This document shows, piece after piece, positions 44,465-59,249 of a stretch of DNA of 64,000 nucleotides. The stretch lies in the sequence record OR352938.1; one strand, written 5' to 3'. The translations under genes were made by a program, and so were the position numbers. The notes under the pieces are model-generated. The model did no database searches, was not told where the DNA came from, and was given only the letters and a program-made list of their open reading frames with translations. This DNA comes from Escherichia phage AV108. The first letter of the stretch is position 1. Every line of letters starts with the position of its first letter.

Positions 44465-45121
44465 TTAAATGTTCGCGAGAATCGCGCTTTCAAATTCTTC
44501 TAATGTACCATTATTTATGATAATGGTTTCACCGTCAATAGGCAAAATTCCTTTTTCGGTGGAGTGAGTCGATACAATACCAGTATCACGCTGAATATGC
44601 AACACCTTAGCACCCATAGCACGCATGAGAGCAATTTCAATAGGCTGACGCACATCAACCACTACAAAATAACCTTCTTCATTTTTGCGCTTCATAAACT
44701 CATTCACGAAGAGATTACACCAATAAAGCGGATTGATCAAGTTAACCATTATATCAGTACCGAGAGTGGTTAACATGAGACGAATAGACCAGACGTTATT
44801 ATGTTTTTCGCCGATCTCATTAACGACCTTGTAAATCTCAGCCAGACAATCACAAGTAAAGGAACTACCGCCATACTTCGAATCTAGCATAAGCAGACAC
44901 TGAATAAACCACTTATGCGCGGTATAGGTATCAATACCTAGATCGGCTTCTCTGTCACGCCCTAACCCGTCAAAGTCAAGATAAGTCAGACCTAAGTCTG
45001 GTTGGCATTCGCACAATATTTCTTTGATCGGTGCTGCCAGTTGATAACTATGTCCATCAATGATTAACGCGGCAGTGTCTTTTCCTACTCGCTTTTTACC
45101 ACAAAGTGCAATCAATTTCAT
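44465..45121 (-). CDS. 1: Deoxynucleoside monophosphate kinase gp1
   Basis: MKLIALCGKKRVGKDT P-loop and YQLAAPIKE as in T4 gp1. Confidence 0.8.
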   Translation of the reverse strand: MKLIALCGKKRVGKDTAALIIDGHSYQLAAPIKEILCECQPDLGLTYLDFDGLGRDREADLGIDTYTAHKWFIQCLLMLDSKYGGSSFTCDCLAEIYKVVNEIGEKHNNVWSIRLMLTTLGTDIMVNLINPLYWCNLFVNEFMKRKNEEGYFVVVDVRQPIEIALMRAMGAKVLHIQRDTGIVSTHSTEKGILPIDGETIIINNGTLEEFESAILANI

Positions 45122-45136
45122 TATATAAGCCTCTTA

Positions 45137-45727
45137 TTACTTTCTAAAAGCAGGGTGCATAGCTTTAATACCTTCCACCCTCTGACGATCCGCCGCCTGA
45201 ATTGCTGGGCGAGGAACGATCAGTTGACCATCACGTTCAATGCTCATTGTTTTAAAGGGAAGAATTGCAGTACACACCAGAGATTCATGCATATCATCGG
45301 TGTATGTTAACTCAAGTTCCCCCAATTGTGAACACCAACAACCATAAAAGTTAAAAGTGCACACAATGTTACGTCGTTCGTTGTCCATCATGTGAACTTG
45401 AACGGCTTCCGGCATTGAATCCTTCCACGCTGTGGAGTTACCGTTATTGTAGTCTACTATAGAAAGCATCCATGTGTAAAGGTTTAGATAGCTTTCCAAA
45501 TGCTCATCAACGATAAACCGGACTACCAACGGGTCAAACTCCACATGACTAGACGGATAATCAGCGACCGCCAAACCATATTGACCAGCAACTTGCTTAG
45601 TCGGTGGAATGGTTATAGCCGGAAGTGTAACACCTTGACAGTTTAAAGTAAAGCCTTTTGTTAGTTGACCATCTGGAATGGCAATCTGCCAGTTGCTAGG
45701 GTTAGCATAGTTAAAGAGATTGGACAT
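45137..45727 (-). CDS. 3: Tail completion/sheath stabiliser gp3 (by synteny)
   Basis: 196 aa ORF immediately downstream of gene 1 as in T4; no motif confirmation. Confidence 0.4.
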   Translation of the reverse strand: MSNLFNYANPSNWQIAIPDGQLTKGFTLNCQGVTLPAITIPPTKQVAGQYGLAVADYPSSHVEFDPLVVRFIVDEHLESYLNLYTWMLSIVDYNNGNSTAWKDSMPEAVQVHMMDNERRNIVCTFNFYGCWCSQLGELELTYTDDMHESLVCTAILPFKTMSIERDGQLIVPRPAIQAADRQRVEGIKAMHPAFRK

Positions 45728-45757
45728 TACGATTCCTTAAATGAAAATATTTATCAA

Positions 45758-46291
45758 CTAAAAATTTAAACTAGCATAATCTCCAAAATGTTCCTTTGCT
45801 GCTTCGTCATAAGCCTTTGCAGCATCAACTTCGTCAAGAAAGACGCCCAAATGGACCTTTCTACGATTGATTGATATCTGAGCACACCATTTGTTATTCT
45901 GTGTTCTAATCACTCCTTTATACTTACTCTTACAACCATCAAGTTTTCCGCGATTGAACGCATTTTCCTGAGAAGTGGATTCTCTCAAGTTATCCGGTGC
46001 ATTATTTTCTCGGTTTCTATCTACATGGTCGATCATTTTAACTTGCGTACCATGTTCAAGATACCAAACAACCCTATGAACTTTAATGACCAAAGAATAG
46101 CCATCACTGCGCCAAAACTTAAAACATAGATAACCTCGACTATTTTTATAAACTTTAACCGGGTCTCCTGCCTTATACCATCGACCATTCTTTCCACTAT
46201 CTTTCAAATGATACAATATACCATTAACGTGTTTATACTTATCTCTAATTTCTTTTTGTGTAAAATCATCCCACATCTTAAAACCAGACAT
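45758..46291 (-). CDS. Free-standing HNH endonuclease with AP2 DNA-binding domain
   Basis: IDHVDRNRENNAPDNLR (HNH) and KYKGVIRTQNNKWCAQISINRRKVHLGVFLDEVDAAKAYDEAAKEHFG (AP2-like); own promoter upstream. Confidence 0.7.
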   Translation of the reverse strand: MSGFKMWDDFTQKEIRDKYKHVNGILYHLKDSGKNGRWYKAGDPVKVYKNSRGYLCFKFWRSDGYSLVIKVHRVVWYLEHGTQVKMIDHVDRNRENNAPDNLRESTSQENAFNRGKLDGCKSKYKGVIRTQNNKWCAQISINRRKVHLGVFLDEVDAAKAYDEAAKEHFGDYASLNF

Positions 46292-46324
46292 ACATTTTCT
46301 CCTGATATTATTAATAACAACATC

Positions 46325-46353
46325 AATCTAACACATCCAGTATATAATGTCAA
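46325..46353 (-). promoter_or_regulatory. sigma70-type promoter for HNH-AP2 gene
   Basis: TTGACA-N17-TAGATT upstream of GGAG RBS. Confidence 0.4.
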
Positions 46354-46508
46354 TTGTCGCTTTGCGACGTGCCGTAGGCACTGACTACTTTTTAACCGAA
46401 ACAAATTTTTATTATTCTAAAGATCTTTCTTCGTTTTGGTTATGTTTTAACCAATAACTATATTTTTATACAGTAATAAATAAAACTGGTACTATACGAG
46501 GACTTCTT

Positions 46509-46763
46509 ATGACAGAAGACATTTTGTTAAAACTCTATGATCGTTTGGATAACGAATTAGCAACATTGCGGGGTGAAGTTCTCTATTTGTCTAAATGCAA
46601 TACAGATCTGCTTAAGCAGATTGCAGAAAGGGATGATCAAATAAAATCCCTTTCAGGTGCATTACGTGATCGCGACAAGGCATTAGAGATTTTACAGCGT
46701 GTTACCAATAAGGAAGAATTAAAAGACTTCTTACATGGTTATGCTCATGCTATCGATCTATAA
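46509..46763 (+). CDS. Hypothetical coiled-coil protein (84 aa), plus strand
   Basis: GAGGA RBS 7 nt upstream of ATG; followed by hairpin terminator; AT-rich upstream region. Confidence 0.5.
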   Translation: MTEDILLKLYDRLDNELATLRGEVLYLSKCNTDLLKQIAERDDQIKSLSGALRDRDKALEILQRVTNKEELKDFLHGYAHAIDL

Positions 46764-46790
46764 TAAAAAAAGCCCGTCATTGACGGGCTT
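46764..46790. terminator. Palindromic hairpin terminator shared by convergent genes
   Basis: AGCCCGTCAttgACGGGCT flanked by A-run. Confidence 0.55.
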
Positions 46791-46794
46791 AATC

Positions 46795-47937
46795 TTAACT
46801 ATTGATCATATCAATGACGTTTTGTAGCTCTGATATGGATAGCGTTTCTGTATATCCATCGGGCATATCTTCTTTACTAACATAGAAACCTTTATACTTT
46901 TTCTTTATTGCACATTCCATAGAAAGAGCATCATCACCGTTATCGTATTTTTTATAAAATGTCAACTCATGACGAAATATAGATTTTGAAGATTGGTTTT
47001 GTATTCTTTTTATTAATCTGTTGTTGGTTATACCAAATTTTATAGCAACCGCAACATCTTCTTTGTATAAAGTTTGTACATAAATGTATGCAGGTTTATT
47101 CCTCTTAAATCCATGATTGCTACACATAGGGCAACCGCTATTTTTTGATACGTAGTCTCCTAAGTTTGGCGTAAATTCATGTCCGCTACTACAACGCATT
47201 ACCAATTTTGTTTTTAGCATTCCTCTATACTCACCGCCAACAAAATCAACAAATGTATCACCTTTATCAATCGCCTTATCTGTTATTTCCTTTACTACTT
47301 GCTCAGTTGACTTCTTGTTTTTACCTGAACATAGTTTACATCTAGATCCATTAACTAAAAACGAGTGACCGGATGCAGTATATTCATGTCCATTAGGGCA
47401 TTTAACTAAGATATTTCTTTCATAAAAATCTTTATAATCAGACACATAGCCAATGACTTCGTGGTCTTTTTGGTTATTCCTCATCTCTGTTAGCAACTCT
47501 TCGCTATTCCAGCGTTTACCCTTAACGCAGAGACAACCATGACCTTGATAAAGATATATAAATTTCTTAGTAAAGTTTTTGTTGCAATCAGGACAATGCA
47601 TTAGTAATTCTGTCATTTGACCTGTATATCCTTTAGGAATATCGATCAATGTGTATTTTCCGCATATTGTCTTTAATGCATCATCTATTCTTTCTTTGGT
47701 CCAGCGTAAGCGACCAGTGCATTCATGACATTTTACACCCAGTCTAAGAGTATCTAAACTAAATATAGTTGACGTATGTCCTTTATCACATTTTAACTTA
47801 AATCTAGTATCCTTTGCGTTGGTGTATTCTCCGACTAGACCATACCATTCATAACCACATGGGATATGTTCTTTTACCTTCTCTAGATATACACCGAACG
47901 GTCTAGGAACTGAATTAGGTTTTCTTTCTTTAGTCAT
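46795..47937 (-). CDS. Zinc-ribbon repeat protein with C-terminal GIY-YIG/T5orf172-like domain (homing-endonuclease-like)
   Basis: Four repeats of C-x2-GH...C-x2-C followed by AYIYV...AIKFGIT..R motif. Confidence 0.45.
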   Translation of the reverse strand: MTKERKPNSVPRPFGVYLEKVKEHIPCGYEWYGLVGEYTNAKDTRFKLKCDKGHTSTIFSLDTLRLGVKCHECTGRLRWTKERIDDALKTICGKYTLIDIPKGYTGQMTELLMHCPDCNKNFTKKFIYLYQGHGCLCVKGKRWNSEELLTEMRNNQKDHEVIGYVSDYKDFYERNILVKCPNGHEYTASGHSFLVNGSRCKLCSGKNKKSTEQVVKEITDKAIDKGDTFVDFVGGEYRGMLKTKLVMRCSSGHEFTPNLGDYVSKNSGCPMCSNHGFKRNKPAYIYVQTLYKEDVAVAIKFGITNNRLIKRIQNQSSKSIFRHELTFYKKYDNGDDALSMECAIKKKYKGFYVSKEDMPDGYTETLSISELQNVIDMINS

Positions 47938-47949
47938 ATTTTTATATCC

Positions 47950-47986
47950 TGTAAATTAAAGCGCCGTCACCAGCGGCGCTATTTTT
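47950..47986. terminator. Hairpin terminator after gp2
   Basis: GCGCCGtcaccaGCGGCGC with flanking A/T-rich runs. Confidence 0.4.
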
Positions 47987-47993
47987 ATAATCA

Positions 47994-48815
47994 TTAAAAC
48001 AATTTCCACACCTTACGAGCATCATATTTCTTGTCTTTGCTCATAAACTGGTAGGTCGGAAGATACACAACCGTGCCCCAATCTTTTGGTGCGATCTCAA
48101 TCAGTTTTGTTTGGATGTGTCCAGGCAAATATGCTTTGATCATGTGGTCTGCGCCTCTCATACCTTTAACATCACTCCATTTAATTTTTAAACGAGTTTT
48201 ATTACTAAGAGTAGGTGTACTCGCGTATTGTCGCAACAACGCTTCTAAGAACTGCTGGCGAGCTTTAGGTGGCGCATAGTGCAAGTTCAAACCTAGCATA
48301 ATCTCGTTTCCCGCTTTAGATGTACCAAATCCTAGACAGATAATCAAGGGGTATCGGTCAAAGAATGGCAAAGAATCCCGATATTTTGGGTTATACGCAT
48401 AAGTATAGATCCGTCCCACTTGTGGTTTTACTACCTGATGACCTTTTACACCATCCTTGATGGTCTTCATAAACCACTCCTGTGATTTTTCTTTAGGACG
48501 ACTCTTTGATACAGCACGCATAGACGCACGAAAATCATTAATCATCATCATTGCGCGTTGCTGCTTATTGAGACCCTTTGCACTTTTCCCTTTTAGTTTT
48601 TCAACTTCTATTGCTGTTTTAATTTCGCTGGCATAACGAGACATACTTTTAGTGAAAGTCGCATAAGCAATACCCTTAGAATCTGCAAATGCTTTAGCTG
48701 TCATGCCTTTGGCTTTTGCTTTCGCAAATTCTACACCCAATTCGACCCACTGTTTAGACTTTCGTTTTTGGGGAGACGGCTTTTCGTCTTCGGTGATTAT
48801 TTCAAATACGCTCAT
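47994..48815 (-). CDS. 2: DNA end protector protein gp2 (by synteny/size)
   Basis: 273 aa basic protein between gp4 and gp3 region as in T4 (274 aa). Confidence 0.5.
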   Translation of the reverse strand: MSVFEIITEDEKPSPQKRKSKQWVELGVEFAKAKAKGMTAKAFADSKGIAYATFTKSMSRYASEIKTAIEVEKLKGKSAKGLNKQQRAMMMINDFRASMRAVSKSRPKEKSQEWFMKTIKDGVKGHQVVKPQVGRIYTYAYNPKYRDSLPFFDRYPLIICLGFGTSKAGNEIMLGLNLHYAPPKARQQFLEALLRQYASTPTLSNKTRLKIKWSDVKGMRGADHMIKAYLPGHIQTKLIEIAPKDWGTVVYLPTYQFMSKDKKYDARKVWKLF

Positions 48816-48826
48816 AATATTATCCT

Positions 48827-49300
48827 CTATTTGTTAAGCCCTTTAAAGCCAAACACTTTCTTTAATGCATGTTCGGTTATGATCTTAAACTCCATGTTAT
48901 GCTTTTGGCATAATTTCACGGCAGCTAACCATTTTTCAGTATTTTTTGTGTATGTCCATACTTCATGCATATATCGTTGCTTTGTCTTCGCGGTCATTCT
49001 TTTTGGCTTTTCCGGTGGCCTTGTCTCTTTAGCTGGTTTAACTTCCCATAAATGCTCCTTGCCATCATCAAACTTAACGTAAAAATCCATAAAGTATCTG
49101 TGTCTTTTTCCGTCTGTTGATGACTCATAAGGAATTACTACGGTCTCAGATCCCCATTTTGCAACTCTAGGATTGCGGTCTAGCCACTGCATGATCCATC
49201 TTTCCCAGCTTGAACGGTATGTGATCTTACGTATATCCCCTTTATACTTTTCCTTATTCTCAGGAACATACTTGCCCTTATAAGTGTTAGATCCTCCCAT
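48827..49300 (-). CDS. 4: Head completion protein gp4
   Basis: 157 aa; KGKYVPENKEKYKG...ITYRSSWE N-terminus resembles T4 gp4; divergent from gp53 as in T4. Confidence 0.6.
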   Translation of the reverse strand: MGGSNTYKGKYVPENKEKYKGDIRKITYRSSWERWIMQWLDRNPRVAKWGSETVVIPYESSTDGKRHRYFMDFYVKFDDGKEHLWEVKPAKETRPPEKPKRMTAKTKQRYMHEVWTYTKNTEKWLAAVKLCQKHNMEFKIITEHALKKVFGFKGLNK

Positions 49301-58671: not shown

Positions 58672-58929
58672 ATGGCACGTCGTAAATTTACAGATAATTG
58701 TGAAGCAATTCAGGTATCCCCTTGCGGTTGGGATGTGATCGCGAACGGTGAAAAGATCGGAGAGATCATCGATCATACTCATTCATCATTAGCCGATTAC
58801 ACCGATGAACTGTGGGAGGGTATCAACTTCATGAATGACACTAAACGATTCAAGACTATCGACGAAGCTATCTATTTTGTGTATAATCCAACTTTCGGTA
58901 TGTGGGGAACTAGAAAATGGCACGCGTAA
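58672..58929 (+). CDS. Hypothetical protein (85 aa), first gene of inserted cassette
   Basis: Strong GGAGGA RBS. Confidence 0.5.
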   Translation: MARRKFTDNCEAIQVSPCGWDVIANGEKIGEIIDHTHSSLADYTDELWEGINFMNDTKRFKTIDEAIYFVYNPTFGMWGTRKWHA

Positions 58930-59249
58930 ATATTAAATTGCATTACACAATGAATAAAGCTAAGTTCCCAATGCAAAAGCATTACTATGGTCTACGTGCA
59001 CAAGATCCTAAACTCTATGGTACTCATTGGTTTTGTAAACATGATAACCAATGGCACACATACGAAGAAATGCACGAGATGATGAAACAGGGTATTGAAT
59101 TTAGTTATTCTAATTATGACCATCGTATAACTTGCATTCGAAAATTGAAACGATGGATTCGTAAGAATCCGCAATTTAAAAACTTTGTGTTCTTTATGTC
59201 TCATGTTTATTTGGGACATAGCGTTACCGTCACAGCAAAGGTTAAATAA
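58917..59249 (+). CDS. Hypothetical Cys/His-rich protein (110 aa)
   Basis: Overlapping stop/start coupling; HWFCKHDNQWH...C pattern. Confidence 0.5.
   Translation: MARVNIKLHYTMNKAKFPMQKHYYGLRAQDPKLYGTHWFCKHDNQWHTYEEMHEMMKQGIEFSYSNYDHRITCIRKLKRWIRKNPQFKNFVFFMSHVYLGHSVTVTAKVK

Follow-up and report, generated by a model that had tools for sequence, protein, structure and literature searches.

The subject of this analysis is the interval between the genes for gp3 and gp2 in Escherichia phage AV108, studied in a 64,000-nucleotide stretch of its genome (sequence record OR352938.1; hereafter the window) at positions 45758–47937. The source phage belongs to the T4-type coliphages of the RB49/JSE group (Krischvirus); in DNA comparisons its 4.8-kb gp1-to-gp4 stretch is 99.1% identical to JSE and ~94% identical to RB49-like phages. 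A prediction made from the sequence alone (the original prediction) had proposed that an insertion hotspot with stacked homing endonuclease genes breaks the gene order here. The three open reading frames (ORFs) on which it was built are indeed present: a 177-aa ORF on the minus strand (45758–46291), an 84-aa ORF on the plus strand (46509–46763) and a 380-aa ORF on the minus strand (46795–47937). The order is also broken as described, with a gp3–gp2 interval of 2266 bp in AV108 versus ~474 bp in RB49, where ORF130 is the sole gene in the gap. Comparison with ~55 relatives resolves the interval into a 475-bp resident core and two independent insertions, one between gp3 and the 84-aa ORF (site 1) and one between the 84-aa ORF and gp2 (site 2), and the inserted share of the 2.27-kb interval is only ~1.8 kb.

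Site 1 holds a 592-bp cassette on the minus strand (45759–46350), whose ends were placed by pairwise BLAST and junction alignment with an ambiguity of 1 nt. Relative to RB49, it separates ...TTATTAAC from AATTGTCGC... at a point 31 nt upstream of the gp3 start codon, and the TAG stop codon of its 177-aa ORF ends exactly at the left junction. The protein combines the HNH and AP2 domains that had been guessed for it. Pfam HNH_3 matches with 49.7 bits (2.8e-13; cut-off 24.8), and the Pfam AP2 match stays below its cut-off (20.1 bits against 33.3; 8e-4); residues 120–177 match solved plant AP2/ERF domains in a phmmer search of PDB sequences (E = 3e-7). The same kind of search matches the protein to I-HmuI (1u3e; E = 4.5e-4), which serves as the structural reference for its HNH module, and among PHROG families it matches phrog_99, 'HNH endonuclease' (5.9e-46). 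The motif DH89VDRN..N101L..N110 is intact (H89, N101, N110). Homologs at 50–57% identity match PF13392 and PF00847 and thus share the HNH_3 plus AP2 architecture, and the protein's only PADLOC match is a generic 'homing endonuclease' model. Upstream of the ORF lie an AGGAG Shine-Dalgarno sequence (46299–46303, minus strand, read directly from the sequence) and, from a promoter scan, a σ70-like promoter (46325–46353, minus strand) in which TTGACA is followed after a 17-nt spacer by TG-n-TAGATT, with 10 of 12 matches and the extended TG. This is the best σ70-like match in the region, its −35 hexamer straddles the right insertion junction, and, as the original prediction had it, the element would drive the HNH gene.

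We searched 50,697 phage records at the DNA level and recovered the full HNH cassette only in phiS, at 98.8% identity; RB49, JSE, Phi1, FL37 and ECD7 lack it. A scan of IMG/VR anchored on the 84-aa ORF returned three loci, one of which, contig L006, is a third HNH carrier and has the HNH cassette only. Comparison of carriers with non-carriers reveals a substitution tract (45680–45758, minus strand) that covers the leader and the 5' end of gp3 (45137–45727, minus strand; the tail completion/sheath stabilizer protein, annotated as gene 3 in RB49 and JSE and matching Phage_T4_gp19 and phrog_45). At seven positions (45680–45683, 45722, 45738 and 45755), all at most 80 nt left of the junction, the three carriers share a base that occurs in no non-carrier, and the block at 45680–45683 changes gp3 codons 15–16 from ATC AAT to ATT GCC (N16A). 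Across ~1.7 kb of aligned flank we found no other HNH-linked fixed difference except one position beside site 2. Further left, the gp3 haplotypes are JSE-like in the window, Phi1-like in L006 and of their own type in phiS. The same HNH cassette with its short tract thus stands on three different backbones, which is direct evidence of lateral movement with a co-converted or immunity tract.

At site 2, a 1206-bp cassette on the minus strand (46798–48003; placed by pairwise BLAST and by aligning the junctions) takes the place of 7 nt of RB49 and changes the end of gp2 from ...KVWKDA to ...KVWKLF, its last two codons going from DA to LF. The stop codon of the 380-aa gene takes the former gp2 stop position, so that this gene inherits the bidirectional terminator hairpin of gp2 (46770–46790). 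The hairpin, identified by terminator scan and by alignment with RB49, phiS and JK32, is resident; it ends gp2 in empty-site genomes and here lies downstream of the 380-aa gene. A second hairpin (47960–47980; terminator scan) belongs to the cassette itself and separates the 380-aa gene from the new gp2 stop. Empty-site genomes lack this hairpin, which would act as a replacement terminator or attenuator for gp2.

Amino acids 26–277 of the 380-aa protein (47107–47862, minus strand) form four CapR-type zinc-finger repeats, in agreement with the zinc-ribbon repeats originally proposed. CapR (PF21817) matches in four stretches with 49.1 bits against a cut-off of 24.2, and each repeat contains a C-x2-(G)H/C ... 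C-x(1,2)-C metal site. The protein further matches the DUF4379 treble-clef zinc finger (34.2 bits) and phrog_681, 'endonuclease' (2e-81); it is not a structural protein. The remainder, amino acids 278–380 (46798–47106, minus strand), is a nuclease domain that Pfam T5orf172 (PF10544) recognizes weakly, with 17.2 bits against a 20-bit cut-off. Among 25 homologs at ~30% identity, CapR matches all 25, T5orf172 three and MUG113 three, and the cysteine pairs, Y286, K300-F-G-I-T-N305, R311, H323, E341 and G361-Y-T-E364-T are invariant in them. The fold with its conserved Tyr, Arg, His and Glu set places the domain in the GIY-YIG superfamily. Since the T5orf172 match is marginal, we call the domain GIY-YIG/T5orf172-like; the C-terminus that had been predicted under this name is borne out by fold and motifs but does not reach the Pfam T5orf172 threshold.

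Several other assignments of the 380-aa protein were tried. A Pfam search found neither canonical GIY-YIG (PF01541) nor NUMOD in it at E ≤ 0.1, and membership in the T4 Seg family was rejected on these grounds. A PDB sequence search with the profile of its family returned spurious weak matches only. PADLOC had no match for the 84-aa or the 380-aa protein, and a role as an anti-phage defence component was rejected because no defence-system protein was matched. When the late consensus TATAAATA was sought upstream of the 380-aa gene, only the imperfect TATAAAAATA was found, upstream of the hairpin.

In the same phage records, the 380-aa cassette occurs only in JSE, G37-3 and PTE-Eco09, at 99.8–100% identity. 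Site occupancy was also counted in ~53 distinct Krischvirus genomes, judged by how far apart gp3 and gp2 lie. Site 1 is filled in phiS alone, to which the metagenomic contig L006 adds a further case. At site 2, ~38 of the genomes are empty, three hold the JSE-type gene and ~9 a Phi1- or FL37-type gene, and the two endonuclease genes of the window are accordingly missing from most relatives. RB49 is empty at both sites. JSE is empty at site 1 and carries the 380-aa gene at site 2, and phiS carries the HNH gene at site 1 and is empty at site 2. Site 1 is likewise empty in Phi1 and ECD7, with a 343-aa 'endonuclease' at site 2, and in FL37, with an annotated ORF of 350 aa (342 aa with the start codon used in G2248, ELT3, Cognac and Skers). 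The AV108 window has the HNH gene at site 1 and the 380-aa gene at site 2, and we found both cassettes together in no catalogued genome record among the ~53. They are not stacked, as had been proposed: the two cassettes lie 447 bp apart and are independent, phiS having the HNH gene only and JSE the 380-aa gene only.

The 380-aa protein shares its family with the Phi1-type (343 aa) and FL37-type (342 aa) proteins, which have CapR repeats and the same invariant nuclease motifs and are ~30% identical to it. The Phi1- and FL37-type proteins are 81% identical to each other, with differences mainly in the repeat region and an identical nuclease domain. Site 2 thus holds three allele classes of the same nuclease family across phages, and the term insertion hotspot is apt. 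Paralogs of both families occupy classic niches of homing endonuclease genes (HEGs) in related phages: one follows gene 32 directly in JEP8, and another precedes gene 47 in a related contig. Inside the 64-kb window, tblastn and blastn found no paralogs of the 177-, 84- and 380-aa proteins and no repeats of the region.

The gene for gp2, the DNA end protector (47994–48815, minus strand; phrog_429 and RB49 and JSE annotation), differs from that of most relatives in its 3' part (47994–48476, minus strand; gene nt 340–822). By sliding identity, the 3' 480 nt of gp2 are 100% identical to JSE and only 60–80% identical to RB49, phiS, Phi1 and FL37, and identity is back to 99% by ~800 bp from the site-2 cassette; the left flank of the cassette is 99% identical to all phages compared. 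In the whole phage collection, this foreign allele occurs at an identity of at least 99% in HEG carriers only, followed by JK32 (77.5%) and other Krischvirus (~70.7%). Relative to RB49, 102 of 160 codons differ, 67 of them synonymously and 35 non-synonymously. Because 67 of the 102 differences are synonymous, the tract is a functional foreign allele and not the product of decay.

For each site-2 allele class there is a private version of the final ~100 nt of gp2, in complete linkage with it. The gene ends in ...YMPTYQFMSKGKKYDARKVWKDA where site 2 is empty, in ...YLPTYQFMSKDKKYDARKVWKLF in the JSE-type, in ...FMPTFRFLSKGKNYDARKVWKDA in the Phi1-type and in ...YLNTYKFVSKGKNYDARKVWKDA in the FL37-type (FL37, G2248, ELT3, Cognac and Skers; identical in 5/5); in series, the four gp2 tails are YMPTYQFMSKGKK, YLPTYQFMSKDKK, FMPTFRFLSKGKN and YLNTYKFVSKGKN. 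In the Phi1- and FL37-types, the HEG begins before gp2 has ended, its start codon falling within the final gp2 codons (gATGc.TAA, an 8-nt overlap; L004 3262–3269, L022 2188–2195, L025 1343–1350), an arrangement that suggests translational coupling in these two classes. The HEGs of both types also encode a hairpin in their first 12 codons, and both ends of their inserts carry a hairpin followed by TTAATnTTA. A separate observation concerns the Shigella phage JK32 (L013 3462–4816), which has an HEG at neither site. Its whole gp2 plus gp4 block is 77% identical to RB49, with flanks at 98–99.6%, and the replaced block runs from exactly site 2 on the left to the divergent gp4/gp53 region on the right. 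With a replacement edge exactly at site 2, this junction is a general boundary of exchange.

The two sites are separated by 447 bp (46351–46797) that are 99% identical in every RB49-like phage and thus constitute a resident segment. We rejected the idea that this conservation is itself unusual, given a genome-wide background of 97–99% against RB49. Twin hairpins, a late-promoter-like element, the 84-aa ORF (RB49 ORF130) and the bidirectional terminator make up this core in every relative compared. The original prediction had counted the 84-aa ORF, most of the AT-rich region and both hairpins among the inserted material, and this part has to be given up: they are 99% identical in empty-site RB49-like phages, and the ORF keeps its position and orientation even at 67% protein identity. 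Its description of the intergenic region was accurate. The 217 bp at 46292–46508 have a GC content of ~0.28 and include the two small adjacent hairpins (46356–46381), GTCGC-TTT-GCGAC and GTGCC-GTA-GGCAC, which stand 5 nt from the HNH insertion point. Their folds have energies of −15.3 and −15.6 kcal/mol (z-scores −2.0 and −2.9); they are found in empty-site genomes and are conserved in two divergent relatives, L008 and L014, with compensatory changes.

The 84-aa ORF is a real gene. It is found in all Krischvirus records, its homologs are confined to Krischvirus-type phages, and those at 67% protein identity occupy the same place between gp3 and gp2 and run opposite to both, in a neighbourhood free of HEGs. 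Compared with L008, it shows 17 synonymous and 4 non-synonymous differences with a third-position bias. A GAGGA Shine-Dalgarno sequence precedes it (46498–46502, plus strand, from reading the sequence), and further upstream, where L008 and L014 have the exact T4 late consensus, AV108 has AATAAATA (46475–46482, plus strand), which by analogy with that consensus may be the late promoter of the ORF. In domain scans the protein matches only phrog_17832, a function-unknown family. Its AF2 model (pLDDT 89) consists of one long helix (residues 2–65) and a short helix. The claim that the ORF is the sole plus-strand gene of the early half finds its counterpart in RB49, whose annotation shows no plus-strand gene other than ORF130 between genome position 1 and gene 4.

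Upstream of the 84-aa ORF, the resident core also contains a ~60-nt intergenic motif (…CGAAACAAATTTTTATTATTCTAAAGATCTTTCTTCGTTTTG…; 46392–46454; local BLAST and alignment), of which RB49 has two diverged tandem-like copies in the gap RB49p164/RB49p165 (NC_005066.1 97,555–97,612 and 97,699–97,762; L021 17556–17763). A second matching place was signalled in most relatives, and the only match in the part of RB49 that was checked (1–122,000 of 164,018 bp) is this motif; local megablast did not recover it, its identity with the second matching place is not established, and it is unrelated to the cassettes. The GenBank records of Skers, pEJ01 and kvi start at the equivalent of window position 46473, just upstream of the 84-aa ORF, and the Sf20 match to the gp3 side stops one base short of the record end. 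The shared starting point of these records is probably a linearisation convention and not biology.

We consider it about 80% probable that AV108 carries two unrelated, independently acquired freestanding HEG cassettes, with the 84-aa ORF, a resident late gene, between them. This reading is built on the presence/absence polymorphism of both cassettes, their exact junctions, the domains with their intact catalytic residues and the flanking tracts that are linked to the cassettes on different backbones; what follows about cleavage, target positions, expression timing and homing is predicted from sequence. The first cassette would comprise an early σ70-type promoter, a strong Shine-Dalgarno sequence and the 177-aa HNH-AP2 nuclease, set between the gp3 leader and the twin hairpin, and the second a hairpin, a Shine-Dalgarno sequence and the 380-aa protein, set between the gp2 end and the original gp2 terminator. 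In the latter protein, the four CapR-type repeats would read a long DNA target, which the C-terminal GIY-YIG/T5orf172-like domain would cut. Upon co-infection with a cassette-free relative, each nuclease would cut or nick the empty allele near its own insertion point, the predicted targets being the gp3 5' end and leader for the HNH enzyme and the last ~60–100 nt of gp2 for the 380-aa enzyme. T4-type recombination-dependent repair would then copy the cassette and an adjacent donor stretch into the cut genome, and the cassette-linked substitutions would render the carrier's own allele uncuttable.

A number of points weigh against this reading. Promoter-like sites in the region are no commoner than chance, so that the HNH promoter counts as a consensus match, and a clear promoter for the 380-aa gene was sought and none was found. 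The nuclease domain of the 380-aa protein stays under the cut-off of the Pfam T5orf172 model, which only three of 25 family members touch, and homing by T5orf172-type genes has not been experimentally verified according to Barth et al. (PMC10448857). The JSE-type cassette is confined to four very similar JSE-like genomes; its distribution could be vertical, and the case for its mobility therefore rests on the foreign gp2 tract. Finally, the mosaic replacement of gp2–gp4 in JK32 took place without any HEG, so a divergent flank alone is no proof of nuclease-driven conversion.

Some alternatives were set aside outright. A transposon or IS origin was rejected in view of the lack of terminal repeats, target duplications and a transposase domain; we found no direct or inverted repeats flanking either cassette and, with ARAGORN, no tRNA genes. 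An explanation by structured RNA was dropped, as no Rfam family came near its gathering score, and an NCBIfam search returned nothing informative. Modular shuffling independent of the nucleases has some support. It would proceed by ordinary T4-type recombination, homologous or mediated by microhomology, between short conserved elements such as the promoter-bearing stem-loops of the PeSL cassettes (Arbiol et al.), with the nucleases as passengers or inactive, and PeSL-mediated shuffling has been shown for RB49 and phi1 (PMC2839356). Stem-loops do stand at or beside every junction, with the twin hairpin next to junction 1 and those at 46770–46790 and 47960–47980 around the 380-aa gene, but neither cassette has homologous PeSLs (σ70 promoter, AT-rich tract, GGGG/CCCC stem-loop) at both its ends, and site 1 is one-sided. 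The hairpin and TTAATnTTA elements that bracket the Phi1/FL37-type inserts at both ends, and the JK32 replacement that ends at site 2 with no HEG, fit shuffling as well. The cassettes, however, hold essentially the nuclease gene alone, with invariant catalytic residues, and the linked tracts are one-sided and abut the junction, as co-conversion or target immunity predicts. We judge shuffling on its own to be unlikely, although the two models are not mutually exclusive. Assignment of the cassettes to the PeSL class was rejected, as the hairpins at 46770–46790 and 47960–47980 share no extended homology and there are no flanking direct repeats.

Just as improbable, in our estimate, is that one or both proteins have been domesticated and no longer home, acting as a competitor-excluding nuclease (marker exclusion) or as a CapR-like DNA-binding regulator. 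A pure DNA-binding derivative would not be expected to keep all its nuclease catalytic residues as these proteins do, and the rare, patchy distribution is not that of genes fixed in a clade with a shared need. Some points speak for it: CapR of the Vibrio PLE satellite is described as a domesticated T5orf172-family repressor (PMC8096241; PMC10448857), T4 HEGs cause partial exclusion of T2 (PMC2993671), and the 380-aa gene is 99.8–100% conserved in its four carriers. Cutting of a competitor's allele is also the first step of homing, and the difference lies in the selective rationale more than in the mechanism. Ancestral presence in the genus followed by repeated loss, with the 'empty' sites as deletions, seems very improbable. 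HEG decay and loss are known, and the carriers of the JSE-type gene are mostly close relatives, but empty sites show an intact gp2 end followed directly by the terminator in RB49-like phages, in the divergent JK32 and in the relatives whose 84-aa homolog is at 67%. Three non-orthologous allele classes at site 2, an HNH cassette on three backbones and a gp2 tract that is linked to the JSE-type gene and foreign to the backbone likewise speak for acquisition.

Under the preferred reading of two acquired HEG cassettes, both gene types are known kinds of freestanding HEG, and the locus represents no new kind of system. Genes with CapR repeats plus T5orf172 and HNH-AP2 genes have both been put forward as putative phage HEG classes at genetic-exchange boundaries (PMC10448857), and the preferred reading agrees with the genomic hallmarks that this study applied to both. 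The 380-aa protein resembles the putative CapR/T5orf172 HEGs of ICP1, T5-like and other phages (PMC10448857, PMC8096241) in joining an N-terminal CapR/DUF4379/DUF723-type 'beads on a string' array to a C-terminal GIY-YIG-superfamily nuclease. Its gene is likewise freestanding, located beside an essential gene, variable in close relatives and placed at an exchange boundary, and its alleles differ chiefly in the DNA-binding repeats with a shared nuclease domain (Phi1 versus FL37 type). Unlike the HEGs surveyed, it belongs to a T4-type phage (the 2023 survey found T4 without the class and leaves Krischvirus unmentioned; PMC10448857), its nuclease domain is a divergent branch under the Pfam cut-off, and it is part of an allelic series at one gp2 3'-end site with a private gp2 tail for each allele.

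The 177-aa protein agrees with the HNH-AP2 HEGs of RB16, RB43, RB49 and JSE (PMC2993671) in its N-terminal HNH_3, C-terminal AP2 and length of ~180 aa, as well as in its own early-type promoter, its intergenic location beside an essential gene and its patchy distribution. It differs in being only 50–57% identical to its nearest non-orthologous relatives and in its site upstream of gene 3, which is empty in RB49, JSE and Phi1, and it departs from the IPA-HNH class (Barth et al. 2023) in being found directly with Pfam HNH_3. Intronless homing by T4 SegF (genes 56/69) and SegG (gene 32) (PMC2993671) offers a further parallel, with a freestanding GIY-YIG-superfamily gene beside an essential gene, a cut predicted in the neighbour gene of an HEG-less phage and flanking co-conversion that leaves a localised foreign tract. 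The 380-aa protein differs from Seg proteins in having no canonical GIY-YIG match and no NUMOD modules, with a CapR zinc-finger array as its DNA-binding part. In Table 5 of Petrov et al. 2010 (PMC2993671), JSE and phi1 each have one 'seg-like GIY-YIG' HEG and RB49 has none; judged by domain content against strict Seg, the label 'seg-like' is only loosely correct for the JSE and phi1 genes. The PeSL cassettes of RB49 and phi1 (PMC2839356) come from the same phage group and are also small, stem-loop/σ70-bounded cassettes that vary in near-identical genomes. They differ in being ORFans in hyperplastic regions with homologous PeSLs on both sides; here we find nuclease cargo in a conserved virion-gene core without paired PeSLs. 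Existing annotation already calls the JSE and phiS copies endonucleases. The presence of both cassettes in one genome, the nucleotide-level junctions with their linked tracts and the three-allele series with private gp2 tails appear undescribed in the literature searched.

On the outer sides of the locus lie gp1 dNMP kinase (44465–45121, minus strand) and the head completion protein gp4 (48827–49300, minus strand), both from the ORF list. The latter has a Pfam match to the TnsA-like endonuclease N-terminal domain PF08722 (4e-21), and the phiS gp4 is divergent, at 83.5% identity to the window. Elsewhere in the window, a 197-aa HNH-type endonuclease ORF (NUMOD4 + HNH_3; 35953–36546, minus strand) is flanked by nrdC.11-like and vs.6-like genes. 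At the DNA level it matches nothing in RB49, JSE, phiS or Phi1, and the same junction holds a different 'homing endonuclease' in JSE and phiS and none in RB49 and Phi1, so that this place looks like a second HEG hotspot with alternative occupants. Three further mosaic patches showed up by sliding identity: 39600–40000, with a 131-aa membrane-like ORF (39723–40118), is present in RB49 and Phi1 and has no match in JSE or phiS, 40800–41200 is ~86% identical to all comparators but Phi1, and 58800–59200 is 80% identical to RB49 only.

The locus provides a clean, well-bounded natural example of the signatures of intronless homing in T4-type phages of a group employed in phage therapy: the junctions are exact, the conversion tracts lie on one side, and one cassette recurs on different backbones. 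It extends the CapR-repeat/T5orf172-like HEG class into the Straboviridae and offers testable target predictions for both enzymes, in the gp3 5' end and leader and in the last ~60–100 nt of gp2. For annotation, it means that the 84-aa ORF belongs to the resident sequence together with its regulatory region, and that gp2 alleles in the genus are chimeric because of the neighbouring HEG. A further possibility, which we advance tentatively and hold to be less than an even chance, is that the gp2 3' end is the arena of an ongoing arms race between target and nuclease, with at least three diverged CapR-array/GIY-YIG nucleases (JSE-, Phi1- and FL37-type) competing for one site. Each nuclease would then come with a private, cleavage-immune version of the last 30–160 gp2 codons, and the differences in the zinc-finger arrays (Phi1 versus FL37, 81%) would track the differences between gp2 tails. 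If this is true, selfish nucleases directly drive the amino-acid diversification of an essential virion protein in T4-type phages, and the locus would offer a natural set of variants from which to read the DNA-recognition code of CapR-type zinc-finger arrays.

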